A stretch of DNA of 64,000 nucleotides, from positions 896,001 through 960,000 of the forward strand of contig OZ271918.1 in the NCBI GenBank assembly GCA_965602015.1, given 5' to 3'. Below are positions 7,280 through 25,922 of the stretch, piece by piece. The first letter of the stretch is position 1, and each line of letters begins with the position of its first letter. The stretch is from Salinispira sp. (GTDB lineage: Bacteria > Spirochaetota > Spirochaetia > DSM-27196 > Salinispiraceae). The position numbers were made by a program, and so were the translations under genes. The notes below the pieces were generated by a model, which was not told where the DNA came from, ran no database searches, and saw only the letters and a list, made by a program, of their open reading frames with translations.

Positions 7280-7283
7280 TTTT

Positions 7284-8708
7284 CTATGTTCCCGCCTTTC
7301 CCTCGGCCAGCCAGGTTCCGAAAATCTCATCGTCGCCGGGTTTTGCGGTGGGCAGTAGATCGGAGACCCAGGTTACATTCAGAAAGTGCTTGTAGTAGAT
7401 ATTCTCGGTGGTAATGTTGCCCCCCCAGGTACCGCATCCCAGGGTAACGGTTGAGGGCATGCCGTTCCAGAAGTTCCCGCCATTACCCGGTGCCTGGGGC
7501 TGGTTGACCAGAATGCGGCTGGTGCGCTGATGCAGTCCCAGCTCTTCGACGTACGAGCGGGTATTGGTATGAATGCCGCATGAGTGGCCGGTTCCGGCGT
7601 TGTCGGTGAGCCGGGTAAGAATTTCGACGGCTTCGGGGAAGCTCCGGTATTTCCAAACCGTGAGCACCGGCGAGAGTTTTTCCCCGGCGAAGCGGTCGTC
7701 TTCAAGGGGCATCTCGCCTTCGACGACGATCATCCGTTTTCCCGACGGAATGCCGATGCCCGCGCCTTCGGCAATGGCCGCAGCGCTCCGGGCGATGATG
7801 GCCGGATTCAGGGCGCGGTATCCCGCCTTGTTCTCAACCCACATCCAGTCTTCCAGCTTGTTCCGGTCGGATCCCCGGGCGAACCATCCGCCCTCGCTCT
7901 CAAGGCAGGAGCAAAACGTTTCATATATCGACTCGTGGATAATAACCGAGTTTTCGCTGGAGCAGCTGGTTGCGTAATCGAAGCATTTGCTCACCGTTAT
8001 TTTCGCCGCAGCATCGGCGATGTCGGCGTCCTCGGCCACGATCTGCACCGCGTTGCCCGGGCCCACTCCGTAGGACGGGGTTCCGCTTGAATATGCGGCC
8101 TTCACCATGGCGCCGCCTCCGGTTGCCAGCACCAGATCCACCTGTTTCATCAGTTCATTGGTCGCGGGAATCGAGGGCTCGCGAATGATCTGGATCAAAT
8201 CCTCCGGAGCGCCAGCCTGACGCAGGCCATCGCGCATCATGTCCACCGCCAGAGCCGAACTGTTTTTCGATCTGGGGTGGGGGGCGAAGATTACCGCATT
8301 TCGGCCTTTAAGGATGGAAAGGGCATTGCTTCCCGGGGTGGCGGTTGGATTAGTAACCGGGGTAAGAGCGCCCACGACGCCAACGGGTTTGGCGTATTTG
8401 CTGATGCCCCTGGACTCGTCCCGTTCGATGAGGCCTACGGATTTGGCATCCTTTATATCCCTGAGCAGGCCAAGGATTTTTCCCTTGTGTTTTTTTATCT
8501 TGTCCTCGACATTGCCCATCCCCGTTTCCTGGACGGCGTCTGCCGCCAGCCGGGCGATGTTTCCATCGTTGTAGACCTGCCAACCGACGGCCACGCAGAC
8601 CCGGTCGATTTCTTCCTGGGTGTATGAGCTCACCGCCTCTTGGGCTCTGCGGGCTTTACCGACTAATTCGCTGATCATATCGCTGATGTGTGCATCGTGA
8701 TTGTTCAT
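7284..8708 (-). CDS. sauS: CoA-acylating aldehyde dehydrogenase, sulfoacetaldehyde dehydrogenase (SauS/SqwD)-like
   Basis: ATG at 8708 preceded by an AAGGAG RBS; PVTNPTAT, ATGGGAMVKAAYSSG, FDYATSCSSENS (catalytic Cys), EKLSPVL, TLGCGTWGGN. Confidence 0.8.
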   Translation of the reverse strand: MNNHDAHISDMISELVGKARRAQEAVSSYTQEEIDRVCVAVGWQVYNDGNIARLAADAVQETGMGNVEDKIKKHKGKILGLLRDIKDAKSVGLIERDESRGISKYAKPVGVVGALTPVTNPTATPGSNALSILKGRNAVIFAPHPRSKNSSALAVDMMRDGLRQAGAPEDLIQIIREPSIPATNELMKQVDLVLATGGGAMVKAAYSSGTPSYGVGPGNAVQIVAEDADIADAAAKITVSKCFDYATSCSSENSVIIHESIYETFCSCLESEGGWFARGSDRNKLEDWMWVENKAGYRALNPAIIARSAAAIAEGAGIGIPSGKRMIVVEGEMPLEDDRFAGEKLSPVLTVWKYRSFPEAVEILTRLTDNAGTGHSCGIHTNTRSYVEELGLHQRTSRILVNQPQAPGNGGNFWNGMPSTVTLGCGTWGGNITTENIYYKHFLNVTWVSDLLPTAKPGDDEIFGTWLAEGKAGT

Positions 8709-8736
8709 GGGGGCTCCTTGTATTTCGGTTGGAAGC

Positions 8737-9221
8737 TTACTTGAAGTTCTCCGCCTCAATGGACTGCACAAGCTCGAAATTTTTCTGGAGGAAATCCCTC
8801 TTGAATTCCATCTTCTGGGCGAATGCCATGGCGAGCCATGCCTGGGCAATCTGGACTCCCAGGAAGGGCGCGGTTATCCAGCCGCCCATGGTTATGACAT
8901 TCGCATTGTTGATGATTTTTGCCCGCTCGCCGCTGAAAATTGAGTCAGCCACGCAGGCATACACGCCCCGGTGCTTATTGGCGACGATGGCCATGCCCTG
9001 CCCGGTCCCGCACACCAGAATCCCCTTGTCCGCCGTGCCGCTTTGCACGGCTTTTGCGACCTTCGGGGCCTGGGCGGTGTACGGCTCGGGTTTATCCGGG
9101 TCGCTGATGCCGAAATCGATGACGGTGACATCGTCCCGTTCGGCCAGAAACTCGCCGATTGCCTTTTTAGGGGGAATCCCGAAAGGTCCGATGCGATGGC
9201 TATGGTGATGTTTTCTGCCAT
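8737..9221 (-). pseudogene. RpiB/LacAB-family isomerase (SqwI-like sulfoerythrose isomerase) with a single-base frameshift, possibly a sequencing error
   Basis: N-terminus MAENITIAIASDLSGFPLK and C-terminus GILVCGTGQGMAIVANK...NNANVITMG lie in different frames. Adding one A in the A5 run (plus-strand T run 9164-9168) restores LKKAIGEFLAERDDVTVIDFG. Confidence 0.85.
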
Positions 9222-9267: not shown

Positions 9268-10203
9268 TTACTTGCTGTTGTCGATCAGCGACGATGCCGC
9301 CCGGGCAATATGCTCGGCGGTCATACCGTAGGCTTCAAGAAGCCCGTCGAGAAGCCCCACCTGTCCGAATTCGTCCTGGCTGCCGATCCGGCTCAAGCGG
9401 CAGGGAATGGCTTCCTCGGCGATGACCTCCGCCACCGCGGAACCGAGGCCGTTGTGAATATTATGGTTCTCGCAGCTCACCGCCAGTCCGGTTTTTTCCA
9501 GGGAAGATGCGATGAGCCCGCGGTCCAAGGGCTTCAGGCTCAGGGCGTCGATGACTTCCGCTTCAATACCCCGGGACGCCAGGATGTCCGCGGCTTCCAG
9601 GGTCTGCTGAAGCATAACCAAACCAAGTGAAATGAGGGTAATGTGGCTGCCGCTGCGCACGACCTTTGCCTTTCCGAGTTCGAAGTTTTCGGACTCATCG
9701 TAGTAAGTCCATCCGCCCTTGCGGTGAAGGCGGATGTACACGGTTTTGGGGTATTCGGCGATGAGGGGAAGCAGTTTCCGCAGGGAGGTTTCATCCGACG
9801 GCTCAACTATTGTGAGCTTGGGTATGTTCCGCATCAGGCCGGCGTCCTCGAAGGGCATGTGGGTACCGCCGTTGTATTGGGCGGTAACCCCCGGATCGGT
9901 TCCCACCAGTTTGACATTGAGTTGGGCATAGTTGGCCGACAGAAAGAACTGATCGTACACCCGCCGGCTGGCGAAACAGCCGAATGTGGCGGCAAAGGGA
10001 ATTTTTCCGGCGGCGGAAAGCCCCGATGCGATGCCGACCATATTTGCCTCGGCGACGCCGACGTTTATTGTCCGTTCGGGATAGGCGCTCTTGAAGCCTT
10101 TTGTTCCCGACGCTCCCATAAGGTCGGCTTCGAGAATGCATATATTCTGGTTTTTCGCGGCGAGCTCCGTCAGCACATCGTTATATACCTGTCGCATATC
10201 CAT
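9268..10203 (-). CDS. Transketolase, C-terminal subunit (SqwGH-like)
   Basis: NVGVAEANMVGIASGLS, FGCFASRRVYDQ, NGGTHMPFED, ENHNIHNGLGSAVAE; ATG at 10203. Confidence 0.92.
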   Translation of the reverse strand: MDMRQVYNDVLTELAAKNQNICILEADLMGASGTKGFKSAYPERTINVGVAEANMVGIASGLSAAGKIPFAATFGCFASRRVYDQFFLSANYAQLNVKLVGTDPGVTAQYNGGTHMPFEDAGLMRNIPKLTIVEPSDETSLRKLLPLIAEYPKTVYIRLHRKGGWTYYDESENFELGKAKVVRSGSHITLISLGLVMLQQTLEAADILASRGIEAEVIDALSLKPLDRGLIASSLEKTGLAVSCENHNIHNGLGSAVAEVIAEEAIPCRLSRIGSQDEFGQVGLLDGLLEAYGMTAEHIARAASSLIDNSK

Positions 10204-10207
10204 ATTC

Positions 10208-11038
10208 TTACTTCTCCTGGTCTTCCAAGGCCCGGATGGCCTCATCTGCGGTTTCCCGGTCGAGGGGCATGTTGTGATTGCCCAAATTGTGCTCTGCGAA
10301 AGCCGCGCCTTTGCCCTTTACGGTATCCATAATGATCATGCTGGGCTTGCCTTGTACCCGTTTTGCGTTTTCGATGGCATCGTCGATGGCAGCCACGTCG
10401 TGGCCGTCTATTCTCTGGACGTGCCAGTTAAACGCGGTCCATTTGGCTGCAATATCTTCCAGACCCATGATGTCAGCCGTCATCCCGTCTATCTGCATCT
10501 TGTTGAAGTCGGTAAAGGCGATGAGGCGGTCGAGTTTGTAATGCGGAGCGGCCATGGCGGCTTCCCATATTTGCCCTTCCTGGCTCTCGCCGTCGCCAAT
10601 GCAGGCGTACACGAATGATTCCTTCTTATCCATGCGCAGACCCAGTGCAATGCCGATGGCCGCCGAAAGGCCCTGGCCGAGGCTTCCGGTAGTCATGTCG
10701 ATTCCCGGGGTGCGATTTCTATCCGCATGGCTGGGGAGGTTGGTTCCCACCACATTCAGGGTCTTTAACCAGTCGGAATGGAAAAAACCCCGGTCCGCCA
10801 GTACACTGTACAGGGCGGGGCCCGCATGGCCCTTGGAGAGGACGAACCAGTCCCGGTTATCCATCCGGGGTTGTTTCGGATCGATGTGCATCTGCCGGTA
10901 ATACAGGACGGTAAGCAGTTCGACAATGGACATCGAGCCGCCGACATGGCCGACTCCCAGGTTGGCGATTGATTCCAGGGTCATCCGGCGTATAAGGCGC
11001 GCCTTTCGCTCAAGGGTGATACGCGTGTTCTGATCCAT
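10208..11038 (-). CDS. Transketolase, N-terminal TPP-binding subunit (SqwGH-like)
   Basis: GHVGGSMS, DWFVLSKGHA, TGSLGQG, TPP motif GDGESQEG...N, DTVKGKG. Confidence 0.93.
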   Translation of the reverse strand: MDQNTRITLERKARLIRRMTLESIANLGVGHVGGSMSIVELLTVLYYRQMHIDPKQPRMDNRDWFVLSKGHAGPALYSVLADRGFFHSDWLKTLNVVGTNLPSHADRNRTPGIDMTTGSLGQGLSAAIGIALGLRMDKKESFVYACIGDGESQEGQIWEAAMAAPHYKLDRLIAFTDFNKMQIDGMTADIMGLEDIAAKWTAFNWHVQRIDGHDVAAIDDAIENAKRVQGKPSMIIMDTVKGKGAAFAEHNLGNHNMPLDRETADEAIRALEDQEK

Positions 11039-11058
11039 AATAGCCTCAAGATATTTAT

Positions 11059-11075
11059 TTACTTACAGGAAATAA
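11059..11075. promoter_or_regulatory. Putative ROK operator TTACTTA-CAG-GAAATAA in the divergent tkt/ROK promoter
   Basis: Matches TTACTTA-N3-TAAGTAA with 2 mismatches; lies just before a TATAAT at 11081-11086. Confidence 0.6.
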
Positions 11076-11118
11076 TTAAATATAATGTAGCATCGCTTCA
11101 CAGGACTGTAAAGCGGTT

Positions 11119-12312
11119 GTGAAGGAATTGAATACGGTGAATACGAAAAATCCGGTGAGAAGCAGCGATATCCGCGAAGCCAATGAGAAGCTCATTCTGA
11201 GCATTATACGTGAAGAGAGAAGCACCTCCCAAAGCGAGGTGGTATCCCGAACCGGGCTGAGAGCGCCGACGGTGCTGAGGTTTTTTACCGATCTTGAAGA
11301 GCGGGGATACATTCAAAAATCCGTCTCATCCGAGCCGCCAACTTCAGAGAGCGAAAAGCGCGGGCGCCGGCCGGTGTACTACGAGGTCGTGCCAGAATCC
11401 GCGTATGCCATAGGGCTCGAGTTCTGGCTGGAGTCTGCTTCGGTGGTAATCGAGGATTTTAGCGGGGAGGTGGTGTATTCCCAGATTGAAGATATTTCCG
11501 GCCGCAGCGGTAATTCCTTACCGGAGTTCCTTATGTCCCTGGTCCGGACAGGCATAAAGCATGCCGGGCTGGAAGATGCGAACATCATCGGCATCTGCGT
11601 CGCCGCACCCGGCCAGGTTGATGTGGAAACCGGCGACATAATCCAGTATTCCCGCAAGGGGCTTGCGGATATAAACCTGCGGGACTTATTCCAATCCGGG
11701 CTTTCCATACCTGTTCTCATCCAGAATAACAGCACCGCCGTCGCCTGGGATTTTTACATGAACGGACCCGGCAGAGAGCATCCGTCCCTGTTTACCATTA
11801 TGATCCGCTCCGGCGTCGGCGGAGCGTTTATCGACAACCGGGAAATTTTCGTTACCAAAACCCATACCACCCTGGAAATCGGTCATATCGCCGTGGAATA
11901 CAACGGACGGGCCTGCGACTGCGGCAGCAGCGGCTGCCTGGAAGCCTATGTGTCCGAACAGGCCATCCTCCAGGACTGCGCCTGTATACCGGGGATCAGT
12001 ACCATCGGCGATTTTGACAGTCTGGATGATGCGGCCCACAAAGAAACCGTCAGCGAATGTCTGCAATCCAAATCCGGCATGCTCGCCATGGCGGTGAGAA
12101 ACCTGATAAGCCTTTTCGGGCCGGAAATGGTGCTTATTGTGACCAGATCCCGGGTTCTCGGCGATATTCTCGCCGGTCAGGTTGCCAAGGAAGTTCGCGC
12201 CCAGTCCAGCGACCGGTGGCAGGGAGAAACCCGGATAGCATCGGCATGCTACGATCCCCTGAGAGCCGGCCGCGGGGCAGCGGAGCTGCTGTTCCGGCAA
12301 TTCCTAGGTTGA
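11119..12312 (+). CDS. ROK-family (NagC/XylR-like) transcriptional regulator
   Basis: N-terminal HTH (SQSEVVSRTGLRAPTV...LEERGYI, GRRP); ROK domain with GVGGAFI, EIGH and CDCGSSGCLE. Confidence 0.92.
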   Translation: MKELNTVNTKNPVRSSDIREANEKLILSIIREERSTSQSEVVSRTGLRAPTVLRFFTDLEERGYIQKSVSSEPPTSESEKRGRRPVYYEVVPESAYAIGLEFWLESASVVIEDFSGEVVYSQIEDISGRSGNSLPEFLMSLVRTGIKHAGLEDANIIGICVAAPGQVDVETGDIIQYSRKGLADINLRDLFQSGLSIPVLIQNNSTAVAWDFYMNGPGREHPSLFTIMIRSGVGGAFIDNREIFVTKTHTTLEIGHIAVEYNGRACDCGSSGCLEAYVSEQAILQDCACIPGISTIGDFDSLDDAAHKETVSECLQSKSGMLAMAVRNLISLFGPEMVLIVTRSRVLGDILAGQVAKEVRAQSSDRWQGETRIASACYDPLRAGRGAAELLFRQFLG

Positions 12313-12322
12313 GAGGCAATAC

Positions 12323-14389
12323 ATGTCAGCATTAGAGCAATCGTCAGGGTCTGGGGAGCAATACGCCGCTTTGTCCCTCACGGGAGAATTTACCGAGGAT
12401 TCCTTTTCCATCTTCTTTAAAGACCGGCTCATAATCCGGCACAGCCCCGACGACCCCTGCCTTGCCAGCGGTGAAGGGCGGGGGACATACCGCTTTGTCT
12501 ATGGACTGTTCAAAATTTCCGACAACATTACCAAACGACATGAGCACATCGGCTATGAGCGGCGGGAGCATACTGCTGACGGATTTACCCTGTCCTTCGA
12601 TAACGGCGCTACCCTGTCCTGTATGGTTCGACAGGGACGGCTGCACATAAGCGTCAAAACCAGCTCTCCGGAAAACCGGACTAACCGGGTATGGCTGCAG
12701 GTCCAGGGCCTTGCCGGCGAGCGTGTCTACGGCGGCGGTGAGCAGTACAGCTACCTCGATTTAAAGGGGAGAACGCTTCCGGTGTGGGTTCAGGAGCCGG
12801 GGCTCGGCCGCGGGCGGGACCTGGTGACGCTACGGGCGGAGCTCAAGTCGGGTTACGGCGGCAGCTGGTTTTCCACCTACTTCGCCCAGCCGACCTTCCT
12901 GTTTTCCCGGGGCGCGTATATCCACTGTGAATCCAGCGCGTATATGGAGGCGGATTTCAGGAAGGATGGAAAATATGAATTTGCAGTGTGGGAAGGGGAT
13001 TTCACCCTCGTCCTCGATGTGAATAAACAACCCCTGGACCTAATCGAGTCGCTTACGGGGTACATCGGCCGTCAGCCCCGGCTACCCGATTGGGCCTATG
13101 ACGGGTTGTGGCTTGGAACCCAGGGGGGGCGGGAAACCACGGGGCAGCGAATGAAAAAGATGCAGGCCGCCGGTGTGAAGATCGCCGCGCTCTGGTGTCA
13201 GGACTGGGAGGGCAAACGGGAAACCAGCTTTGGCAAACAGTTGTTCTGGGACTGGATCTTCAGCAGTGAGCTGTATCCAGACCTGCCCGGCTATATTAAA
13301 GAGCTAAAAAAGCAGCACGTCCGCTTTCTGGGCTATATCAATCCCTTCCTGGCCATTGAGGGAGAGCTCTACAAAACCGCTGCGAAGAACGGGTACTGCG
13401 TAAAAGATCCTTCGGGCAAGGATTACCTGGTAACCATAACCGACTTCCCCGCGGCGATGATCGACCTGACCAATCCCGAGTGCCGAACATGGATAAAATC
13501 AATTATCCGGTCGAATATGATCGACATCGGACTCGCCGGCTGGATGGCCGACTTTGGTGAATATATTCCGGCGGACGCCGTGTTCTACGACGGTTCGAAT
13601 GCCGAGCACTTTCATAACCGCTATGTGGTGGAGTGGGCAAAAATCAACCGAGAAGCCGTGGATGACGCGGGTAAGCGGGATGAAATCATCTTCTTTATGC
13701 GCGCGGGTTACAGCGGCAGCCAGGCCTTCGCATCGGCATTCTGGAACGGGGACCAGTTGGTAAACTGGAGCCGTCACCAGGGTCTTCCCACCGTCATTCC
13801 CGGCAGCCTTTCTCTCGGCCTCATCGGGGCCGGGTATGTACATAGTGATCTGGGCGGATATACCACAATCTTTCATCTTAAGCGGAGTAAAAGGCTGATG
13901 ATGCGCTGGGCCGAGCTATCGGCATTCAGTCAGACCATGCGCAGCCACGAGGGCAATCGGCCGCACATAGGGTGGCCCCTGGATGGGGATGATGAAACCA
14001 TGAAACATCTGGCGCGCATGACCGGCATCTTCACCGACTTGAAACCCTATCATCAGGAACTCTCGCAAGAATACCAGGAGAAGGGCACACCTCCAATGCG
14101 TCATCTTTGGCTGCACTATCCTGATGATCCTCAGATTCGAAACCGGAAGCTTCAGTACCAATACCTGTATGGTCCGGATCTTCTGGTGGCGCCGGCGTAT
14201 AAGCGCTTTTCCCGGTTTCGCACAGTATATCTGCCCTCTGATGACTGGGTGCATATGTGGACCGGCAAACCGTATCCCCGGGGGTGGGCGAGGGTTCCCG
14301 CTGTTCTCGGCTCCCCGCCGGTTTTCTACAGAAAACCGTCACGTTGGTCTGATTTTTTCAAGACTCTGGCAGATCGCTGGTCTTCGTGA
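12323..14389 (+). CDS. yihQ: GH31 alpha-glucosidase, sulfoquinovosidase (YihQ)-like
   Basis: LGTQGG, QDWEGKRETSFGKQLFWDW, LGYINPF, nucleophile WMADFGEY, acid/base WNGDQ, HSDLGGYT, MRSHEGNRP; no signal peptide. Confidence 0.85.
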   Translation: MSALEQSSGSGEQYAALSLTGEFTEDSFSIFFKDRLIIRHSPDDPCLASGEGRGTYRFVYGLFKISDNITKRHEHIGYERREHTADGFTLSFDNGATLSCMVRQGRLHISVKTSSPENRTNRVWLQVQGLAGERVYGGGEQYSYLDLKGRTLPVWVQEPGLGRGRDLVTLRAELKSGYGGSWFSTYFAQPTFLFSRGAYIHCESSAYMEADFRKDGKYEFAVWEGDFTLVLDVNKQPLDLIESLTGYIGRQPRLPDWAYDGLWLGTQGGRETTGQRMKKMQAAGVKIAALWCQDWEGKRETSFGKQLFWDWIFSSELYPDLPGYIKELKKQHVRFLGYINPFLAIEGELYKTAAKNGYCVKDPSGKDYLVTITDFPAAMIDLTNPECRTWIKSIIRSNMIDIGLAGWMADFGEYIPADAVFYDGSNAEHFHNRYVVEWAKINREAVDDAGKRDEIIFFMRAGYSGSQAFASAFWNGDQLVNWSRHQGLPTVIPGSLSLGLIGAGYVHSDLGGYTTIFHLKRSKRLMMRWAELSAFSQTMRSHEGNRPHIGWPLDGDDETMKHLARMTGIFTDLKPYHQELSQEYQEKGTPPMRHLWLHYPDDPQIRNRKLQYQYLYGPDLLVAPAYKRFSRFRTVYLPSDDWVHMWTGKPYPRGWARVPAVLGSPPVFYRKPSRWSDFFKTLADRWSS

Positions 14390-14458
14390 GCACCACTAGT
14401 TAGCTCACGAATCACCGAGAAATTCGCTTGCGGATATCGATAAATCGGGTATAATTAC

Positions 14459-14475
14459 TTACTTATTGTAAGTAA
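14459..14475. promoter_or_regulatory. Putative ROK operator TTACTTA-TTG-TAAGTAA
   Basis: Perfect 7-bp inverted repeat immediately downstream of a TATAAT (14450-14455), upstream of the cupin/ABC operon. Confidence 0.7.
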
Positions 14476-14523
14476 GGTAAAATCCAAGCTGCACCATCAA
14501 GCGTACAAAAGCGAGGGCATTCA

Positions 14524-15279
14524 ATGACAAAAAGCGGTCAGCTGTTTAGCGCAGATGCCAGCCGATGCGAATTAAAAGAGTTATTCAACCACCACACCTC
14601 CAATCTCGATGGTCTGAGCGCTGCGGAAATTCGAATACAGAATTCTATCAGTCCGCCATTCGCCTTTGAAGGTGAGGAAGTACTGCTGTTTAACCTGGGG
14701 GCGCCGCTTACCGCCCGGGTGAACGGAGCAGACTACCAGCTGGCCCATTACGATGTTCTCTATGTCCCGCTCAACAAGGGTTTTAGGCTAAGCCACAATG
14801 GAGATGAACCGGGTCTTGTGTATGCGTATCGGGCGACCGGTACTGAAGACTACCCGGTGTTCCATTCCGGCTATGAAGACGCCAGGAAGAGTAAAGAGCG
14901 CATCCGCCACCTGAACCGGAAAGTCGTGTATAAAATGTTCGATGTCTCCGAGGGGGCCAACAAATTCATGGCGGGCTATACATTCTACGACGACCACACC
15001 AGAGCCTGGCCGCCTCATAACCACACCGATCAAGAGGAGGTCTACAGCTTCATCGAAGGCAAGGGCGCCATGACGGTATACGAAGACGATGAACACCAGA
15101 CCTTTGTGACATCGGTAAAGGTGGGAAGCCACGTTACCATTCCGGTGCTCAATTACCATCCGGTGTTCAGTCACGATGAGCCCCTGTGTTTTATCTGGTG
15201 CATCGCCGGGGAACGGTATTGGGTAGGGGACAAAAACACCGACTTCATGAAGGGAGACGGGGAAAAGATAACCACGTAA
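14524..15279 (+). CDS. IolB/KduI-like bicupin sugar isomerase
   Basis: AWPPHNHTDQEEVY and YHPV metal-binding motifs resemble IolB SSYPPHKHD...EEIY...GYHPV; the N-terminal cupin has YDVLYVP. Confidence 0.7.
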   Translation: MTKSGQLFSADASRCELKELFNHHTSNLDGLSAAEIRIQNSISPPFAFEGEEVLLFNLGAPLTARVNGADYQLAHYDVLYVPLNKGFRLSHNGDEPGLVYAYRATGTEDYPVFHSGYEDARKSKERIRHLNRKVVYKMFDVSEGANKFMAGYTFYDDHTRAWPPHNHTDQEEVYSFIEGKGAMTVYEDDEHQTFVTSVKVGSHVTIPVLNYHPVFSHDEPLCFIWCIAGERYWVGDKNTDFMKGDGEKITT

Positions 15280-15398: not shown

Positions 15399-16655
15399 AT
15401 GAAGCTTGTGTACCGCAGTACGGTAATTCTAATGGTGCTGTCCGCAATGGTGCTATTAGCTGTGGGCTGCAGTCCCGCGGAAGAAGAGGTAGTGGTTCTG
15501 AACTTCCCGACTTTCTGGGTCGGACAGGATTCAAAGGCTGAACCCATCGCCGCCCTTGTTGAGAGTTTCAACAACATGTATGAGGGGCAATATCAGGTTG
15601 TTATCGAGCCGAATCCCGATACCGACGGATATCGTGATAAACTGAACACCCAACTGGCTTCCGGACAGGCTCCGGACATCTTTGTATTCAATCCCGACCC
15701 CACCACCTTCCAGTACTACGAAAGCGACATCCTCATGGATTTCACCGACGAACTGACCGGCGCATGGGCTTCGGATTTTGTCAGCAGCTATATCACCGAC
15801 AGCACCCGAAACGGGGCTATTAAGTCCGTGCCCTTCGAAATCGGCATCACCCCGGTATGGTACAACATGGACCTTCTGGCCCGGGCAGGCGTTGACGAGA
15901 TTCCGGCGACCATCGAAGATTTCTACGTCATGGCTGAAGCGCTCAAAGCCGAAGGAATTGTTCCCGGCAGCCAAATGACCGGCGGTTCCAATGCGTGGAC
16001 CAGCATGCTCTGGTACAGTCACATAGTCGGCAGCATCGGCGGACCCGATGTATGGTCCAAGCCCCTGACCGATCCGGTTTTTGTTGAAGCGGCAGCGGTT
16101 CTCCAGCAGCTGTACCAAAACGGCAATACCACCAGGGACGCGGTAGGCGGGGACGCCGGTGTCTCAGGAGGACACTTCCTGGCTTCCAATACCGCGACTT
16201 TTATCAACGGTCCCTGGTACATCGGCCGTATCCGCGGCGATGCTCCGGAAGTCCACGCGGTAACCCGTCTGGCTCCGGCTCCCCAGGTAGGCGATTACTC
16301 CGGACATCAGATCGGTTTTATGCTTTCAAACCTGGCGGCGGCCAATACCGATGATCCCCGCCGGAGGGAGGCGGTCATCACATTCTTGAAACACATGACC
16401 GATCCGGACAATGTGAAAATGGTCAGCGAAGCGGCGGGTTCCCTGTTCGCCATAAAGTACGAGCTCGGCGCCAACGCCGATCCCCTTCAGCGGGAATTCG
16501 TACGGGCGGCCAGCGAGGCCACCTTCGTCATCAACCACTTCCAGTCGGCCTTCGACATAGCGGTTGTGCAGGAATTCGGACAGGCCCTGGCGCTTTTGGC
16601 CCTCGATGAAGCGACTCCCGAAGAGTTTGTCCAGGCCTTGGTAGACGCCCAATAA
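15399..16655 (+). CDS. Sugar ABC transporter substrate-binding lipoprotein (CUT1)
   Basis: GGAGG RBS before ATG at 15399; lipobox LAVGC; LASGQAPDIF, WYNMDLLARAG, FINGPW. Confidence 0.9.
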   Translation: MKLVYRSTVILMVLSAMVLLAVGCSPAEEEVVVLNFPTFWVGQDSKAEPIAALVESFNNMYEGQYQVVIEPNPDTDGYRDKLNTQLASGQAPDIFVFNPDPTTFQYYESDILMDFTDELTGAWASDFVSSYITDSTRNGAIKSVPFEIGITPVWYNMDLLARAGVDEIPATIEDFYVMAEALKAEGIVPGSQMTGGSNAWTSMLWYSHIVGSIGGPDVWSKPLTDPVFVEAAAVLQQLYQNGNTTRDAVGGDAGVSGGHFLASNTATFINGPWYIGRIRGDAPEVHAVTRLAPAPQVGDYSGHQIGFMLSNLAAANTDDPRRREAVITFLKHMTDPDNVKMVSEAAGSLFAIKYELGANADPLQREFVRAASEATFVINHFQSAFDIAVVQEFGQALALLALDEATPEEFVQALVDAQ

Positions 16656-16760
16656 GTAAGTATGCCCTGAGCTGCCAGGCTCTCGGCCACGACGGTCGTC
16701 CGGTCTGTATCCTTGGCCGGACGGCCGCACTATTTCACCGTACCCCAGGGAGAACCGCCA

Positions 16761-17651
16761 ATGCGTGTCCGAAGCAAAAAAAATGCCTTGTGGATATTAC
16801 TTTTCCTCGCCCCGGTTTTGATTTTGTACGGACTGTACTTCATCTATCCTCTTGGTTTTATTTTCGTCACCAGCACGCTCGACTGGAACGGTATAAGCGA
16901 ACCGGTTTTTGTTGGTTTGCAGAATTATGTAAAGAATTTTTCCAACGCCACCTTTCAAATATCCCTTCGAAATAATGCGGTGTGGCTATTCGCCAACGGT
17001 ATTCTTCAAATAAGTATGGCCGCCCTCGTAGCCCTCATACTGGCAAGGCAGCCGAAAGGGTGGCGCTTCCTGAGAACCGCGTATTTTCTTCCGAATGTCA
17101 TCTCCCAGGTCGCCATCGCCATGATGTGGGCCGCCCTGTACAATGCGGAGTACGGCGCCATCAATCAATTCCTCTCGGCGATCGGGCTTAACGAGCTGAC
17201 CCGAAACTGGCTTGGGGAACTCAATACCGCCCTCCCGGCAATTATTATCCAGCAGATTTTTTACATCGGATATTTCATGATTATCATTCTCGCCTCGCGC
17301 ATGACTATTCCCGAAAGCCTCTATGAAGCCGCGGAAATGGACGGGGCAAACGCCGTTCAGCAGGACTGGTTCATCACCCTCCCCATGATAAAGCCGATAC
17401 TTATCACCGCAATGACCCTGGCCATGGCCTATGGTCTCAGGCATTTCGAGGCTACATTCCTTTTAACAAACGGCGGGCCGGCGAACCGAACCTCCGTTCT
17501 GGGAATCATGATGTATAAGCGCCTGAGCTCACTTGATTACGGTGAGGCCGCCGCCATCGGCGTTACCCTGGTGATTTTGGGGCTCATTATGATCGTCGTA
17601 ATTCGCAGCACCATCGGGCGCAGAGATTCCGCCTCCGATGTAACGCAATAG
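16761..17651 (+). CDS. Sugar ABC transporter permease
   Basis: FVGLQNY, FLPNVIS and EAA loop IPESLYEAAEMDGA. Confidence 0.92.
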   Translation: MRVRSKKNALWILLFLAPVLILYGLYFIYPLGFIFVTSTLDWNGISEPVFVGLQNYVKNFSNATFQISLRNNAVWLFANGILQISMAALVALILARQPKGWRFLRTAYFLPNVISQVAIAMMWAALYNAEYGAINQFLSAIGLNELTRNWLGELNTALPAIIIQQIFYIGYFMIIILASRMTIPESLYEAAEMDGANAVQQDWFITLPMIKPILITAMTLAMAYGLRHFEATFLLTNGGPANRTSVLGIMMYKRLSSLDYGEAAAIGVTLVILGLIMIVVIRSTIGRRDSASDVTQ

Positions 17652-17662
17652 GGGAGGGCACA

Positions 17663-18511
17663 ATGGCAATCGTTCGTTACGAAACCTCGGGAGACAGGGT
17701 CGGCAAAATCGCCAAGTGGCTGATTCTCGGTTTTTTCTTCCTGTTCACCTTCATGCCGCTGGTATGGCTGCTAATATCGAGCTTCAAGACGAATCTCGAG
17801 CTGCAAATTGCCCCCTTCAGTCTGCCTGAGGTGTGGCAGATTTCCAATTACATCAACGCTTTGAAGATCAGCGGTCTGCCGCGGCTCTTTTTGAACAGCT
17901 TTGTCGTGTCAACTGCATCAACGGCGCTGACAATCCTGGTTACTTCCATGGCGGGTTTTGTGTTTTCCCGGGAGGTTTTCCGGTTTCGTCAGTCCATTCT
18001 CAATCTGATCATCGCCGGCGTTCTGGTCCCCATCATCGCCCTCATGGCCCCCTATTTCAGACTTACCGCGGCCCTCGGCATATATGACACTCTGCTCGCC
18101 CTGATTCTGACCTACACCGCTATAAACATTCCGATTTCCACATTCCTGATGTACGGATTTATGCAGACCCTACCCAAGGAGCTGGAGGAGGCGGCCACCA
18201 TCGACGGAGTAGGATTCGCCGGCCGCTATTGGAAAATCATATTACCGCTGAGCAAATCGGGGATTGTCACCGCGGGAACATTTGTTTTCCTATTCAGCTG
18301 GAATGAATTCATTTACGCCCTGCTGCTGACCTCCCGCCCCGCCGCCCGTACGCTTCAGCTCGGAATCCGTTTTTTCGTAAGTCAATTCTTTACGGATAAT
18401 ACATCCATGTTCGCCGCCATCGTACTGACCATGCTGCCCACTGTTTTGCTGTACGTATTTATGCATGAACAGATTATCAAGGGCTTAACCAGCGGTTCGG
18501 TGAAAGGGTAG
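17663..18511 (+). CDS. Sugar ABC transporter permease
   Basis: EAA loop LPKELEEAATIDG, FSWNEF, C-terminal GSVKG. Confidence 0.92.
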   Translation: MAIVRYETSGDRVGKIAKWLILGFFFLFTFMPLVWLLISSFKTNLELQIAPFSLPEVWQISNYINALKISGLPRLFLNSFVVSTASTALTILVTSMAGFVFSREVFRFRQSILNLIIAGVLVPIIALMAPYFRLTAALGIYDTLLALILTYTAINIPISTFLMYGFMQTLPKELEEAATIDGVGFAGRYWKIILPLSKSGIVTAGTFVFLFSWNEFIYALLLTSRPAARTLQLGIRFFVSQFFTDNTSMFAAIVLTMLPTVLLYVFMHEQIIKGLTSGSVKG

Positions 18512-18523
18512 AGAATAACATTG

Positions 18524-18672
18524 CACTGCCCCGAAAACAGCTGATGTGCGAGGGGAAAACATTGTGCAGCAATGATTTGCGAAGATATTTGCCGATCAGT
18601 TCACCGGAGGGCGGGCAATTCCTGTCCAGAAAAACGCTTAGACTGTTTAAATCAGCTGTTTTGGGGGCACTG
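18524..18672. mobile_element. MITE-like intergenic element bounded by 22-bp imperfect inverted repeats
   Basis: CACTGCCCCGAAAACAGCTGAT (18524-18545) versus ATCAGCTGTTTTGGGGGCACTG (18651-18672), 2 mismatches; no transposase; no clear target duplication. Confidence 0.4.
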
Positions 18673-18707: not shown

Positions 18708-19553
18708 ATGAAGCCGGGTAGAAAAATCAGTGGACTCTCACAACAAACACCGGAAGGTAACCATGAGCTGAGCTCTGACGCAGCCAATCTTCCCTTGCCG
18801 CTGGAGATAGTCGAAAATGACACCGAGCTGTACTGGCTCATGGCCCTGGAGCTCTACGGGGCTCTTGCCAGGCTCACTCCCGGAGAATCCCTGCGCTGCA
18901 TCGCTCCGGTGGGGCCGGTTTTCCAGTACCGACGATTTATCAGGCTTGTTGACGAGCTCCCCATTGATTTGGCCGGGCTTCATCTGTTTTTTATGGACGA
19001 ATACCTTAACGACGACGGAAGTGTTATTAATAGGACCGATCCTCTTTCGTTCCGCGGCTTCATCGATAAGGAACTCGTCGAACCGCTGGGGACCCGGCAC
19101 GGCTTCAATCCCGGGCAGCTGTATTTTCCCGACCCCGCTGATCCGTCTTCCTACGACCGCATCATCGATGAACATGGGGGCATCGATGTCTGCTTCGCCG
19201 GTGTGGGAATCAACGGACATCTGGCATTCAACGAAGCGCCGAGCGCCGCCGATTCGCCTTCCAGAGTGGTGGAGCTGTCCGCCGAAACCCGGGTCACTAA
19301 CGGCCATACCGCCCTGGGGGGCGACTGGGAGAGCATTCCCCGGCTTGCCGTCACTGTCGGGATGAAGAGCATACTCGCGAGCCGAAGGCTTCGAATCTAC
19401 TGTAACCGTCCATGGCAGCGATCGGTGGTGCGTAAGCTGCTGTACGGACCGGTCGGTCAGGCCTTTCCGGCATCATTCGCGCAAAACCACCGGGATGCCC
19501 GGCTCACGGTCACAAGGACTGTTGCCGAATCGCCCCGGCCGGGGCTGAAGTAG
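18708..19553 (+). CDS. NagB-like glucosamine-6-phosphate deaminase/isomerase family protein
   Basis: PVGPVFQY, FFMDEY, PLSFRGF, GVGINGHLAFNE, AVTVGMKSIL, FPASFAQNH; start uncertain. Confidence 0.8.
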   Translation: MKPGRKISGLSQQTPEGNHELSSDAANLPLPLEIVENDTELYWLMALELYGALARLTPGESLRCIAPVGPVFQYRRFIRLVDELPIDLAGLHLFFMDEYLNDDGSVINRTDPLSFRGFIDKELVEPLGTRHGFNPGQLYFPDPADPSSYDRIIDEHGGIDVCFAGVGINGHLAFNEAPSAADSPSRVVELSAETRVTNGHTALGGDWESIPRLAVTVGMKSILASRRLRIYCNRPWQRSVVRKLLYGPVGQAFPASFAQNHRDARLTVTRTVAESPRPGLK

Positions 19554-19560
19554 ATACGCT

Positions 19561-20516
19561 ATGGAACTAATTGATTTTCATGTGCACGGCGGGCCGCCCA
19601 AACGCAGCGAAGAAATCACCCGCTATATAAATGAGAGCGGCATTGCAGCCATGGGCATGCTCTCCCTTCCCTGCCTCCTTTGTATGCCTGTGCCACCCTC
19701 AATGACGAGATCCTGGAAACCGCCCGCCGCGTGGATGCCGCCCGGCCGGGCTTTCCGCTTGTTCTCTTCGGCTCCCTCGATGATGAAAAATTACGGGTAT
19801 CAGGCTATGAACCCGAAGAAATGGTGGACGATTTGAAGTCCCGGGGCTTCGGCGGTGTGAAACTCTGGGAGGGCAAACCCCATCTTGTCAGGCGACTTTC
19901 GATGCTTCCCGATGACAGGCGCTTCGTTTTGCTGTGCCGCCGGGCAGCCCAGCTCTCCATGCCGGTCATTTTCCATATTGCGGATCCCCCGGCATTCTGG
20001 AAAAACGGCGGCCCCTATGCCTCCGACGATTCGCTTCCGGGCTTTTCCGACCTTATTGAAGCCGCAAGCCGCCTGGCATCTTTAGCGCCCCAATGCACCT
20101 TCATTTTTCCCCACATGCTGTTTCTCGCCGGGGACCTTGGAGTTGCCGCCCGCTTCCTTGATGAGCACCCGTCTTGTTACTTCGACCTGGCTCCCGGGAA
20201 CTACCTGTTTGCCGATTTGGCCTTGCGCAGGGAGGAGGCTGCTGCGTTTTTCGCACGGTATTCGAAGCGCATTGTATTCGGCACCGACGGCTTCTGGTTC
20301 GACCCCGGTGACAAGACCCTCGCCGGTGACAGCTACGGTGGAAACCTGCTGCGCTTCACCAGACTTCTGGATTTCCTGTCTACGGACCGGCAATTTGACA
20401 ATCCATTTGGCTTTAGCGTTGAAGCCCACCCCCGCATTACCGGCCTCAAGCTGCCGGAAAGCATCCTTCGTCCCATTCTTTCTGAGAATGCAAAGGTCAT
20501 TATGGAGGCCCTATGA
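19561..20516 (+). pseudogene. Amidohydrolase-family (TIM barrel) metalloenzyme split by a one-base frameshift, possibly a sequencing error
   Basis: N-terminal IDFHVH in the frame of 19561; GVKLW, PVIFHIAD, FPH and IVFGTD in the frame of 19680. One extra C in the run at 19669-19671 joins them (LSLPLPPLYACATLN). Confidence 0.8.
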
Positions 20517-21631
20517 TGCGCTGTGCCGTCGCCGGATTGGGTATCGGACTGGCCCATGTCGCCGGCTATTTTGCATCGCCGGATGCCGAACTCGTCGCCG
20601 TTGCCGACCCGTGGGAACCACGTAGGCAGTCCCTCGGCGGAACCTTCGGGCAGGGGAGCATGAGGGTTCTCGAACCCCTGTTCGACGAGGGGCAAAAATC
20701 TGCCAGTTGGGACGAGCTGGGGATAGCGGCGTATGCGGACATATCGTACCTGGCTGAACGCCGCGATATTGATGTGGTCAGTATCTGTACGCCGGCCTAC
20801 CTGCACGAACAGCATGCCCTCTTGCTTCTGGAGGCGGGGAAACACATCATCCTCGAAAAGCCCATTGCCCTGAGTTTGGAGGCGGCGGAGAATATACGCC
20901 GAGCAGCCCGAAGGCTCGGGCTCACGGTGGCTGTGGCCTATGAGTTTCGGGAGAACCCCGCAATCATCGCGTTGAAAGGCCTCGTTGAAGCGGGGGAGTT
21001 CGGGGATATTAGCGCATGGAGCCTGTATCACACCCGCAGGCCCTTCCGAAGGGATAAATGGAATGGCTGGATTCAAAAGCAGGAGAACTGCGGAGGACTG
21101 CTGACCGAGGAAACATCTCATTGGTTCGATCTTCTCTGCCATGTAAGCGGGGATGCAATAACATCGGTGTACTGCCTGGGATCTGCTTCTATCCATGGGG
21201 ATTTTGATTATGAGGATATCGCGTTCTGTCAGGGGAGGATGCAAAGAGGGGCGGTCTGGCAGTTGTCCCACGCGCTTACCAGCCACGATTTCGCCTTGAC
21301 AATCGAGGTTCACGGTACCCGGAGGATGGCCCGGCTATCGCTCAAAGAGGGAGCGTACAGCAGCTTCGACGGCGGCCAAAGCGATTACTGGGGCATACTC
21401 AGCCACGGCCCTGTGAACGGCGGCCCCGGCGATGCGGAAATTACGCGCTGGTCAAGAGAGGCCGGAGAACCCGAGAGTATCAGGGATAACGTGGTTCGGG
21501 TAGTGCAATGCCTCCGCGGCAACAGACCGCTGCCGGTGGGCATTGAAGACGCCATCAGGGCGCTCCGGATATCCCTGGCGGCCAGGGAAAGCATGAACAG
21601 CGGAACTGTTATCGAGATTCCACTGGCTTGA
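20513..21631 (+). CDS. Gfo/Idh/MocA-family NAD(P)-dependent oxidoreductase
   Basis: GLGIG Rossmann motif, ICTPAYLH, GKHIILEKP, GGLLTEETSHWFD. Confidence 0.9.
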   Translation: MMRCAVAGLGIGLAHVAGYFASPDAELVAVADPWEPRRQSLGGTFGQGSMRVLEPLFDEGQKSASWDELGIAAYADISYLAERRDIDVVSICTPAYLHEQHALLLLEAGKHIILEKPIALSLEAAENIRRAARRLGLTVAVAYEFRENPAIIALKGLVEAGEFGDISAWSLYHTRRPFRRDKWNGWIQKQENCGGLLTEETSHWFDLLCHVSGDAITSVYCLGSASIHGDFDYEDIAFCQGRMQRGAVWQLSHALTSHDFALTIEVHGTRRMARLSLKEGAYSSFDGGQSDYWGILSHGPVNGGPGDAEITRWSREAGEPESIRDNVVRVVQCLRGNRPLPVGIEDAIRALRISLAARESMNSGTVIEIPLA

Positions 21632-22271
21632 TTCTGATATTGTCCCCTGTGATGCCCACGTATGCCCCCCGCTGCGCTGCGGGGGATTCGGGATGGCAGA
21701 GCATCCATTTGTTTTTCATGAAGTACGTCGGGTCATCAGACTGCGGAGTTTCCAGGGGGCGGTTGGTTCCCTCCGGAAGGATGATAATCGTGCAAAAGGG
21801 ATGTTCGCTCACCCGGCACGGGGCAAGATGAAGCGTGTTGCCGTATAATTCGACCAGGCTTCCCGCCGGCAGATAGAACGGGACCGCCATTGAGGAATCC
21901 CACGTGAAATCGGTAATATCCTCGGCTCTGCCGAGAAATAGCACCACATCGCTCACCGCAACGATAACCTCGCTTCCCCGATGATACTCCATACCGTTCA
22001 TTCGGTCGTTCATGCCGAAGCATAATCCCGCCTGCAGGGCAGTGGAATTGCCGTATACCTCCGATCGGATTTTTGAAAATGACTCGAAGTGCTTCAGAAC
22101 TTCCAACTCCCGCTTGTATGCCGGACCTTCCAGATCAACCTCGGTCAGCGCCTGTACAAACATCTCGCTGCAGTCTATCCCACGAACCAAACGGCCGTAT
22201 CTCGCCAAATCCGGAGAATCTGCGGGAAGTATCCGCAGGGGGGCATTTGCCTTGTTTAATTGCTCTAACAT
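21609..22271 (-). CDS. DUF4867-family protein (SftX-like, found in sulfoglycolysis clusters)
   Basis: YGRLV, QAGLCFGMNDRMNGMEYHRGSE, VELYGNTLHLAPC, ILPEGTN, KNKWMLCH, GAYVGITGDNI. Confidence 0.8.
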   Translation of the reverse strand: MLEQLNKANAPLRILPADSPDLARYGRLVRGIDCSEMFVQALTEVDLEGPAYKRELEVLKHFESFSKIRSEVYGNSTALQAGLCFGMNDRMNGMEYHRGSEVIVAVSDVVLFLGRAEDITDFTWDSSMAVPFYLPAGSLVELYGNTLHLAPCRVSEHPFCTIIILPEGTNRPLETPQSDDPTYFMKNKWMLCHPESPAAQRGAYVGITGDNIRIKPVESR

Positions 22272-22298
22272 TTATGCTCCTCTTTTAAGCCGGGGATA

Positions 22299-22455
22299 GG
22301 CGCCGCAGCCAAACCGCTGCCGCCAAACCGGCGCCGCAGCCAAACCGCTGCCGCCAAACCGGCGCCGCAGCCAAACCGGCGCTGCCACCCGACCAGCGCC
22401 GCAGCCAAACCGCCGCAGCTCAAATCGGCGCGGCAGGCCAATCTGCGCCGCAGCC
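22299..22455. repeat. GC-rich intergenic tandem repeat
   Basis: 31-bp unit GGCGCCGCAGCCAAACCGCTGCCGCCAAACC exact at 22299-22329 and 22330-22360, followed by degenerate ~15-17 bp GCCGCAGCCAAACC-like subunits. Confidence 0.85.
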
Positions 22456-24437
22456 TATTGACCTGCCAGCTCGGCAAACAGCCCGGCCCAGCGGGATTCG
22501 AGCCGGTAGAATACCGGCGGCTGGCCGTAGGGGGCATCGATCGGCCGGGTCCCGCCGCGGTATTCCGATCCGCTAAAAACGTGAATCCATCGGTCATCGG
22601 GAAAGTACACCGCTCGCTCTGCGGCTTGCTCCTTCACCACTGGGGCCACGAGAATATCCCGGCCCAACAGATATTGCTGGCTATCTTCGTATGCCCGGTC
22701 TTCTTCGTAGTAGAAAAACAGCGGTCTGATTGCCGGAACTCCCTGCTGGTAGTACTCATCCAACACCCCCAGCAGGTAGGGTTTGAGTCGTTTGTGGATT
22801 CTGCTGAAAAGGGCAGTGAGGGACACCGTCAATCCGTCATGGTCGAACTGAACGTTGTCCTTCGGCCGGTTGCCCTCATGGCTCCTCATGAGCGGAGAGA
22901 AGCAGCTCATCTCAAGCCACCGGATATACAGATCCCTCGATCGTTTAATAGATGCCACCGTGATGTATCCGCCGATATCGGAATGGCTGACTCCCATTCC
23001 GCTGAGTCCGGCGGAGATTTGAGCGCGGATGACCGAACCCATTCCGTAATCATCGCTAAAGTCGCAGTGCTGGTCGCCGTTCCACAACATGCCAGCGTGG
23101 CGGCTGGTTCCGGAATACGCGGCCCGGACAAAGAAAAACACGTCTTCCCCGGCGCCCGATTCGACAAGGGCTTCGCGGTTCATTCTGCTCCAGAGCACGG
23201 GCCACAAATTATGAATCAGCTCCGGGTCGCCGGCATGAAGGATGCAGTCGGTGGGCAGATATTCGCTGAAATCCGCCATCCACCCTGAAAGCCCGTAGCC
23301 GATCATATTGGTTTTGACGATGGCTTTCATCCATTCGAAAGCATCCGGGTTGGTCAGGTCCACCATCCCCACGGGGAAACTGGTAGTTTTTACGATATAC
23401 GGCTGCCGGTGCTGGTTTACTACAAGATACCCCCGCGATTCGGCTTCGGCGTATTGCTCGCCGTCGCACGCCAGGAATGGATTAATGTATCCCAGGAATC
23501 TGATGCCCTCCCGCTTCCATTCGCTAATTTTGTGCCGCAGTCCGGGGTAGAGATTCTCATCGGCCTTCCAGTTCCAGAATAACTGTTTGCCGAAGCCGGT
23601 TATCCGCTCGCCCTGCCAGTCCTGCGCCCATATGCCGCACAGCTCGGCGCCGGCCCGCTTCATCGCCCCAACTTTCTCTTCGCATACCGAGCTGCCTCCC
23701 TGGATTCCGAGAATGATGCCGTCGTGAATCCACTCGGGAAGTCTCGGTTGGATGCCCAGGCGTGTATTCAGCTCTCCAACCAGATCTGTGTAGTTCCGGG
23801 CGAATGTCAACACAATTTCTGCCGGCGCTGTGGAAAAGCTCAAGCTGTGACAATCACCGGCGCGGAAATCCAGGACGGCATGGGCTGAGGTATCCACATG
23901 ACAGGAATAGCGGGCCGTGGATATAAAATCAGGTTGTACCTGATATGTGGAATATTTTTCAAATGGCATCGGTTTTTTTATGCCAAGGAGTTTGAGAAGT
24001 TCCTTCCTGATGATCGACCAGGTGGTGGTGTGTTCGCTGATCCAGTTGATCACCCTGCATCCCCTGAGGTTGAAGCGGGCGAATTGTTCGCCGCAGCCGA
24101 AAATCATCTCATCCTTATCCGCCGCAAATTTCACCCTGACAGCCTGATCCTCGGCTAGGTTTCGAAAGCTGAGGCTGACTGAGTTCCCGGTTTCACGAAT
24201 ATCAATGCTGACTTTCTGGAATGCCAGGCTTATGCATTCGCTCTCGCTGATTTCTCCCCGGCCCGCGGAAAAGAATCGGGTCCGGTCCCGTATGCGGAAA
24301 TGACCCTTCTTCATGGCGAAGGTCTGTCGGCGTTTTCCGACAAAGAACGCCGGATCCCCCGGGGAATGCGAAAGAAGGAGACGGTCATTCCAGCGCAGCT
24401 CGAGGACGTGATTATTTGCCTCCAGCTTTATGCTCAT
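22455..24437 (-). CDS. yihQ: Second GH31 sulfoquinovosidase (YihQ)-like glycosidase
   Basis: LGIQGG, QDWQGERITGFGKQLFWNW, LGYINPF, WMADFSEY, WNGDQ, HSDIGGY, MRSHEGNRP. Confidence 0.85.
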   Translation of the reverse strand: MSIKLEANNHVLELRWNDRLLLSHSPGDPAFFVGKRRQTFAMKKGHFRIRDRTRFFSAGRGEISESECISLAFQKVSIDIRETGNSVSLSFRNLAEDQAVRVKFAADKDEMIFGCGEQFARFNLRGCRVINWISEHTTTWSIIRKELLKLLGIKKPMPFEKYSTYQVQPDFISTARYSCHVDTSAHAVLDFRAGDCHSLSFSTAPAEIVLTFARNYTDLVGELNTRLGIQPRLPEWIHDGIILGIQGGSSVCEEKVGAMKRAGAELCGIWAQDWQGERITGFGKQLFWNWKADENLYPGLRHKISEWKREGIRFLGYINPFLACDGEQYAEAESRGYLVVNQHRQPYIVKTTSFPVGMVDLTNPDAFEWMKAIVKTNMIGYGLSGWMADFSEYLPTDCILHAGDPELIHNLWPVLWSRMNREALVESGAGEDVFFFVRAAYSGTSRHAGMLWNGDQHCDFSDDYGMGSVIRAQISAGLSGMGVSHSDIGGYITVASIKRSRDLYIRWLEMSCFSPLMRSHEGNRPKDNVQFDHDGLTVSLTALFSRIHKRLKPYLLGVLDEYYQQGVPAIRPLFFYYEEDRAYEDSQQYLLGRDILVAPVVKEQAAERAVYFPDDRWIHVFSGSEYRGGTRPIDAPYGQPPVFYRLESRWAGLFAELAGQ

Positions 24438-25895: not shown

Positions 25896-25922
25896 TATTA
25901 TTACTTACGGTAAGTAATAATA
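25896..25922. promoter_or_regulatory. Putative ROK operator, palindrome TATTATTACTTAC-G-GTAAGTAATAATA
   Basis: Perfect 13-bp arms containing the TTACTTA-N3-TAAGTAA core, just upstream of the symporter RBS. Confidence 0.75.

Follow-up and report, generated by a model that had tools for sequence, protein, structure and literature searches.

The gene at 14524-15279 (+) of the window, the whole stretch of 64,000 nt of Salinispira sp. DNA that was analysed, is an ORF of 251 aa coding for a cupin, and this protein is our candidate for a third, non-orthologous isomerase converting sulfoquinovose (SQ) into sulfofructose (SF), a role in which it quite probably stands in for the two known enzymes, YihS and SqvD/SftI. 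The SQ pathway requires this conversion (excerpt of PMC9594981). The assignment is based on gene context, phylogenetic profile, a shared operator, the predicted fold and conserved metal ligands, and SQ to SF is the likely reaction because, in spirochaetes, the cupin is found with the SQ pathway almost only where neither of the known isomerases was detected. As the reaction and the pathway are already known, our proposal concerns a novel family of enzymes acting at an established step and not a novel kind of system. No assignment of a KduI/IolB-like cupin as SQ isomerase was found in the literature searched, which did not take in the primary reports on the sulfo-transketolase (sulfo-TK) pathway (Liu 2021, Chu 2023).

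The sulfoquinovose cluster and its host genome

To describe the surroundings of the cupin, 30 ORFs between 655 and 35486 were scanned with Pfam and NCBIfam models, and ORFs past 35.5 kb were judged by their N-termini. The SQ cluster spans positions 3740 to 25879; its features, together with the operator copies, are as follows:

3740..5224, minus strand: DASS anion transporter, likely for sulfoacetate export
5214..7330, minus strand: two-subunit ADP-forming CoA ligase, SqwKL-like (Pfam/NCBIfam)
7284..8849, minus strand: acylating sulfoacetaldehyde dehydrogenase-like protein, SqwD-like (SauS model, 515 bits, cut-off 600)
8737..9221, minus strand: RpiB-family SqwI-like isomerase, with a frameshift near 9163
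9268..10245, minus strand: transketolase C-subunit, probably SqwH-like from its context
10208..11038, minus strand: transketolase N-subunit, probably SqwG-like from its context
11056..11078 (site 11059), no strand: operator with 2 mismatches, in the gap that separates the transketolase genes from the divergent ROK gene
11119..12312, plus strand: ROK-family regulator (Pfam/NCBIfam)
12323..14389, plus strand: GH31 YihQ-family sulfoquinovosidase 1 (PRK10426, 834 bits, cut-off 553; Gln at the Arg301 position)
14456..14478, no strand: palindromic operator before the cupin, with a 17-bp core at 14459-14475 and 1 mismatch, directly following a TATAAT box at 14450-14455
14524..15279, plus strand: KduI/IolB-like bicupin, candidate SQ isomerase, 251 aa, predicted metal ligands H165, H167, E172 and H212
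15399..18511, plus strand: binding protein and two permeases of a sugar ABC transporter, immediately 3' of the cupin
18708..21631, plus strand: NagB-like protein, amidohydrolase (frameshift near 19668) and Gfo/Idh/MocA oxidoreductase
21609..22271, minus strand: DUF4867 protein of the SqvB/SftX family (Pfam)
22455..25879, minus strand: GH31 YihQ-family sulfoquinovosidase 2 and GPH symporter (Pfam/NCBIfam)
25898..25920 (site 25901), no strand: operator copy without mismatches, preceding the operon of the GPH symporter, YihQ2 and DUF4867

The cluster has the components of a sulfo-TK pathway, i.e., sulfoquinovosidases (SQases; both YihQ-family glycosidases exceed the PRK10426 cut-off), a split transketolase, an RpiB-type SqwI, sulfoacetaldehyde-handling genes and an exporter. 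All the downstream genes of the sulfoacetate-forming variant (SqwGH, SqwI, SqwD, SqwKL) have counterparts in the window, their names resting on family and context and not on alignment to characterised SqwGH, SqwI or SqwKL. This variant has been reported in Spirochaetes (excerpt of PMC12890257), with SqvD converting SQ into SF as its first step (excerpts of PMC12890257 and PMC9594981); in the window, the cupin takes the place that SqvD holds in the published scheme.

The window genome is 99.67% complete, and no match was detected in it by tblastn with E. coli YihS or four FucI/SftI-like queries, nor by hmmsearch --max with a FucI/SftI-like profile. These searches replaced whole-genome Pfam scans, which were insensitive (PF04962 missed the cupin itself). 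A TalC/SF-TAL-type transaldolase query also gave no match in this genome, so that it likely uses the transketolase branch only.

The possibility that the SqwI-like and amidohydrolase genes are pseudogenes was considered and rejected, since one extra base, missing from the assembly, is present near 9163 and near 19668 in short-read contigs of a sample that may itself be the source of the window, in agreement with both frameshifts being assembly slips (single-base deletions). Two repeats were also seen in the cluster: an inverted repeat at 18521-18672, with arms of ~22-27 nt and a 100-nt spacer, whose arms were found again on further contigs of that sample, as would be the case for a small dispersed repeat, and an array of 14-17-nt GC-rich repeats at 22284-22455, between YihQ2 and DUF4867.

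Both local YihQ copies (12323-14389 and 22455-24437) have Gln where E. coli has Arg301, a sulfonate-binding position at which all the solved GH31 SQases shown keep Arg, and this variant may mean an altered specificity. The cupin could then be an isomerase or epimerase for a related sulfosugar on which the clusters run, either an SQ epimer (e.g., sulfofucose, sulforhamnose) or the product of the NagB, amidohydrolase and Gfo proteins, as could also be read from the NagB-like and possible deacetylase genes near some cupin loci and from the non-spirochaete homologues in genomes without known SQases. We consider this unlikely, however, because the Arg301Gln variant, common in spirochaete clusters, and the NagB module both occur with either isomerase type, many cupin clusters have a YihQ with the canonical Arg301, and cupin and SftI clusters share close transketolase/SqwI genes, interleaved on the tree, and the same operator.

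Family, fold and predicted metal site

The label "IolB/KduI-like", given to the cupin in the earlier note, is adequate as a resemblance, as the protein matches the Pfam KduI/IolB family PF04962 above its gathering cut-off (E 2.2e-9, 37.5 bits, cut-off 23.9) and so belongs to the clan. It does not hold as membership of either enzyme family, with 41.2 bits against the KduI equivalog NF002091 (cut-off 250; E. coli KduI, used as control, reached 453.7) and 19.2 bits against IolB TIGR04378 (cut-off 205). No match was found between the cupin and the families of known SQ isomerases (PF02952, PF07221 or NF048012). A protein search produced 1268 matches, of which the best 120 were 55-87% identical and the named ones were all from Spirochaetota, and an exhaustive profile search gave 24 representatives at E<=1e-30, followed by weaker full-length matches, four of which were tested and were IolB-like, below the cut-off.

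Structure prediction gave a confident bicupin (pLDDT 91.4), the top structural match being the IolB-like 2qjv (Z 23.8, rmsd 2.8, 221 aligned), with KduI 9kcz at Z 21.7, rmsd 2.1 and 198 aligned. Functionally unrelated bicupin folds followed closely (Z 20-21.7), and because they score almost equally the fold does not fix the reaction. The PPHNH-x4-EVY and YHP motifs of the earlier note were located at residues 163-167 (PPHNH), followed by TDQE, 172-174 (EVY) and 211-213 (YHP). The four residues H165, H167, E172 and H212 are conserved in at least 95% of 81 cupin-family sequences; the first three align to the KduI metal ligands H198, H200 and E205, and H212 was assigned as fourth ligand by cupin-motif spacing only. 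The protein has a predicted bicupin fold with a His-His-Glu-His motif, a putative metal site.

IolB, the 5-deoxy-glucuronate isomerase (TIGR04378; PDB 2qjv), converts an aldose to a ketose, its substrate being a non-phosphorylated hexose derivative that is anionic at C6; it provides the top structural match for the fold, but it is only 16% identical to the cupin, which is not tied to iolD/iolE. KduI, for its part, is the best sequence match among solved structures (E 4.9e-6) and the top Foldseek match, and it shares with the cupin the bicupin fold and the His-x-His-x4-Glu metal motif. Further, K133, V135, T153 and Y174 of the cupin align to R163, I165, T184 and Y207 of KduI, and W225 to the tryptophan of FIW. 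The differences are an identity of 15-25%, the lack of the pectin or GAG context of KduI, additional conserved arginines in the cupin (R126, R128, R160, R231), and the absence of the catalytically needed T194 and R203, which in a low-identity alignment anchored on the metal motif correspond to A161 and Q170, near-invariant in the cupin family. The KduI of L. rhamnosus binds sulfonate buffers in its active cleft (excerpt of PMC10792219).

SqvD/SftI (FucI-like; PF02952, NF048012) shares with the cupin the predicted reaction, the pathway position and the operator, but it belongs to an unrelated family, has ~440 aa versus 251 aa, and shows a complementary distribution. YihS (AGE family, PF07221) shares the predicted reaction and is likewise unrelated to the cupin. 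According to an excerpt of PMC9594981, a metal-dependent action on the open chain has been proposed for SqvD, and YihS is a metal-independent enzyme.

If the cupin were a divergent IolB or KduI for inositol or uronate catabolism, located in the cluster by chance, its PF04962 match and the name "5-deoxy-glucuronate isomerase" that some homologues carry in the source database would be expected, as would the finding that all 7 Bryobacterales cupin genomes tested have IolD-like matches and, close to the cupin, a TIM barrel resembling IolE. The low scores against both equivalogs and several other data make this extremely unlikely. No other inositol or pectin genes were found among the 30 ORFs scanned (655-35486), as the earlier note had stated for the window, the Gfo protein reaching 99 bits against an IolG cut-off of 355. 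In the window genome, no IolD over the cut-off and no IolE match were detected, with positive controls, tblastn with E. coli KduI gave no match, and the cupin was the only match of its own profile. Among the same-class genomes with the cupin, IolD was present in 7 of 30, never beside the cupin, and was absent from the other 23, and the 10 IolD genomes checked all carry separate, better-scoring IolB-like genes. Finally, the SQ operator stays with the cupin away from the cluster, as described below.

Distribution and regulation

The genomic context of the homologues was studied in the best 80 of 103 confirmed cupin relatives in genome contigs. A transketolase subunit is present in 28 of these 80 loci, the cupin being immediately before it in 18, and no YihS or FucI-like match was found inside any of the 80. 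In three loci, the cupin is accompanied by a gene resembling SF transaldolases (BmSF-TAL, E 2.5e-79; next transaldolase, E 1.4e-42), and the Gfo protein of these same loci is closest to PDB 8qc3/8qc2, which we take to be GH188 SQases. No transketolase was visible in 27 spirochaete loci; for 19 of them, SqwI is encoded at another place in the genome (E<1e-80), and the remaining 8 comprise the three of the transaldolase type and five with no or weak SqwI match.

The exclusion of the known isomerases was analysed in 401 same-class genomes with an SqwI profile built without using the cupin, a phylum-wide sample being sparse (3/401). The SqwI profile was positive in 68 genomes and the cupin was present in 30, in such a manner that 25 of these 30 have SqwI, compared with 43 of the 371 cupin-less ones. 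The other five are three genomes with an SF transaldolase, G547, in which SqwG, beside YihQ, is truncated by the end of the contig, and G464, an unexplained case; YihQ was found in 24 of the 30.

The FucI/SftI-like profile was made from in-cluster FucI-like proteins (PF02952), putative SQ isomerases whose nearest model is SftI; for the three of them that were tested, the SftI model NF048012 gave the sole match, with a score under its cut-off. With this profile at E<=1e-50, matches were found in none of the 25 cupin-positive and in 34 of the 43 cupin-negative SqwI genomes, supporting the mutual exclusion between the cupin and sqvD/yihS for which the earlier note had suggested a test. The respective figures were 0/25 and 24/43 at E<=1e-130, 4/25 and 36/43 at E<=1e-40, and 15/25 and 40/43 at E<=1e-10, and Fisher p-values for the exclusion overstate it because the genomes are kin. 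YihS was detected in 0 of 53 cupin genomes, in a search where a 14-genome control was silent for the YihS-detecting model and E. coli K-12 was the positive control. Thus neither of the two genomic patterns that the earlier note named as contrary to its idea, a routine co-occurrence of the cupin with a canonical SQ isomerase or with iol genes, was observed.

None of the contigs with the four FucI-like matches at E<=1e-40 also carries the cupin or SqwI. Two genomes that are not among the 68, G464 and G766, have the cupin and a match at E<=1e-50, in both cases beside alpha-L-fucosidases. Nine of the 43 cupin-negative SqwI genomes did not reach E<=1e-50: in three, the SqwI contig has FucI-like genes that are weaker or split, in another five the contigs are short, and the last is G493 (97% complete), with neither cupin nor strong SftI match, and neither isomerase in 19.5 kb. 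The locus in question (L195, G493:C65:145000-164500), where SqwF, TauE and a long transaldolase form part of a sulfo-TK cluster, may hide a fourth isomerase.

Metagenome loci were also retrieved with SqwI alone (n=80), 9 having the cupin, 20 a FucI-like gene, none both, and 51 neither, many of them on short contigs. On a tree of the transketolase C-subunit with 85 rows (alignments of >=260 residues; metagenome labels taken from the locus, not from the whole genome), the label changed 7 times between cupin and SftI, at least 4 of the changes being forced by well-supported branches, which supports repeated exchange, in one direction or the other, rather than a single lineage. The cupin thus occupies the isomerase slot in SF-consuming pathways and excludes the known isomerases from it.

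NagB-family proteins perform aldose-ketose chemistry, and on these grounds the cupin could be an accessory ring-opener or mutarotase, with the NagB-like protein or a housekeeping isomerase making SF. The presence of DUF4867 lends some weight to this, as it is also a metal cupin for which ring opening has been proposed (excerpts of PMC11968277 and PMC9594981). Nevertheless, the cupin excludes SftI and not DUF4867, with which it coexists in 16 of the 80 loci (best 80 of 103) and in the window; the NagB-like gene is present in just 6 of the same 80, and it is also found beside SftI-like genes (L093, L095), so that we regard an accessory role as quite unlikely compared with that of SQ isomerase. 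A plasmid search with DUF4867 for a SqvD reference returned lactose and PTS clusters only.

Regarding the NagB-like protein itself, it accompanies the amidohydrolase and Gfo in spirochaetes (window 18708-21631; L002, L003, L053, L093, L095) and a PIG-L deacetylase in L069 and L070, its loci (also L069-L071) being clusters with either isomerase; L093 and L095 have the same ABC-NagB-amidohydrolase-Gfo operon, with an SftI-like gene in place of the cupin. By analogy with NagA/NagB, this module may turn an N-acetylated amino-sulfosugar into SF, and the literature search for "sulfoquinovosamine" found no paper.

The operator was searched as the 17-bp palindrome TTACTTAC-N-GTAAGTAA. According to the earlier note the cupin was the first gene behind a perfect copy: it is indeed the first gene after the palindrome, but this site has one mismatch. 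Its 8-bp arms are perfect only if the spacer is taken as 5 nt (14455), and the copy free of mismatches lies at 25901. Four sites with <=2 mismatches were found genome-wide, three of them in the SQ cluster, versus a mean of 0.9 in block shuffles (n=10), indicating that the operator is beyond chance. A profile was also trained on 35 sites from other loci, none near a cupin, and the three cluster sites were its top three in the 3.87-Mb genome. At a score of >=15, this profile found the operator within 200 nt upstream of 18 of the 21 cupins located outside any cluster, compared with 0 of 261 control upstream regions of the same loci, supporting that the cupin retains the SQ operator even where it has come to lie amid housekeeping genes; at the same score, the operator was also seen upstream of 9 FucI/SftI-like genes out of the 22 examined. 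Elsewhere, it was found in 6 of 29 Rectinemataceae/Treponemataceae cupin loci, in 0 of 3 of the transaldolase type and in 0 of 27 non-spirochaete ones.

The site at 14456-14478 is likely bound by the ROK repressor, which would likely place the cupin under common control with the remaining genes of the SQ pathway, and the TATAAT box abutting the palindrome would fit repression. A sigma-70 scan before the cupin called no plus-strand promoter, though the TATAAT box is visible at 14450. In the Rectinemataceae/Treponemataceae clusters (L027-L048), another palindrome, GTTAAAG-A-CTTTAAC-like, is often seen before the cupin, and their ROK is more distant (23-27% identity).

Proposed mechanism and wider distribution

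In the mechanism that we propose, YihQ would release SQ, which DUF4867 may supply in its open-chain form, and a divalent metal on H165, H167, E172 and H212 would bind C1/C2 of open-chain SQ, the C1 aldehyde becoming a C2 ketone as in KduI/IolB. The C6 sulfonate of SQ would replace the C6 carboxylate of the KduI/IolB substrates, and the invariant R126, R128, K133, R160 and R231 are candidates to hold it. The SF so formed would pass through the transketolase SqwGH, SqwI, SqwD and SqwKL to give sulfoacetate and ATP, or, in some relatives, would go instead to the SF transaldolase.

SQ, a sulfur sugar of plants and algae, is among the most abundant organosulfur compounds. If confirmed, the activity of the cupin would add a third fold to those known to convert SQ into SF and would assign a function to a family whose present annotation is 5-deoxy-glucuronate isomerase; it would also provide both a new marker gene and a small enzyme of 251 aa for SF production. 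SQ isomerase is one of the genes that at least one recent genome survey looks for when calling sulfo-TK/sulfo-TAL pathways (excerpt of PMC13372026), and as 25 of the 68 SqwI same-class genomes have only the cupin, around one third would likely be missed or scored incomplete.

Outside the spirochaetes, the 23 cupin genomes searched showed no YihQ, no SqwI and no close GH188-like match. One verrucomicrobial transaldolase tested was BmSF-TAL-like (E 6.7e-69 vs 8e-39), and one acidobacterial transaldolase looked canonical. Part of the cupin family may consequently act on another sugar, and the non-spirochaete clade may use either another entry route or another sugar.

A broader proposal would take the whole cupin family as a third, independently recruited class of SQ isomerase, marking unrecognised sulfoglycolysis in Planctomycetota, Verrucomicrobiota and Acidobacteriota without known SQases, where the cupin gene is joined by genes for an SF-transaldolase-like protein and an aldehyde dehydrogenase, to which some Acidobacteria add a possible sulfolactate racemase and sulfolyase. 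In this proposal, an N-acetylated amino-sulfosugar would also enter the SF pool, by way of a NagB-like deaminase and a deacetylase. We hold this extension as possible but rather doubtful.

The acidobacterial cupin loci (L061:373-1548, L060:3378-4655, L062, L064, L065) contain a split UxaA-type dehydratase, LarA-family racemases, aldehyde dehydrogenases and transaldolases; the dehydratase presumably resembles the sulfolactate sulfo-lyase SuyB, and complete SQ desulfonation in one cell is possibly encoded there. In Verrucomicrobia (L069, L073, L078), an operon of ROK, cupin, aldehyde dehydrogenase, SF-TAL-like, threonine-synthase-like and 2-hydroxyacid dehydrogenase genes was observed, a possible sulfolactate-to-cysteate route. 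Lastly, the sulfo-TK clusters of L107, L108 and L122 end in an aldehyde:ferredoxin oxidoreductase and not in SqwF or SqwD, which is a possible further route for sulfoacetaldehyde.
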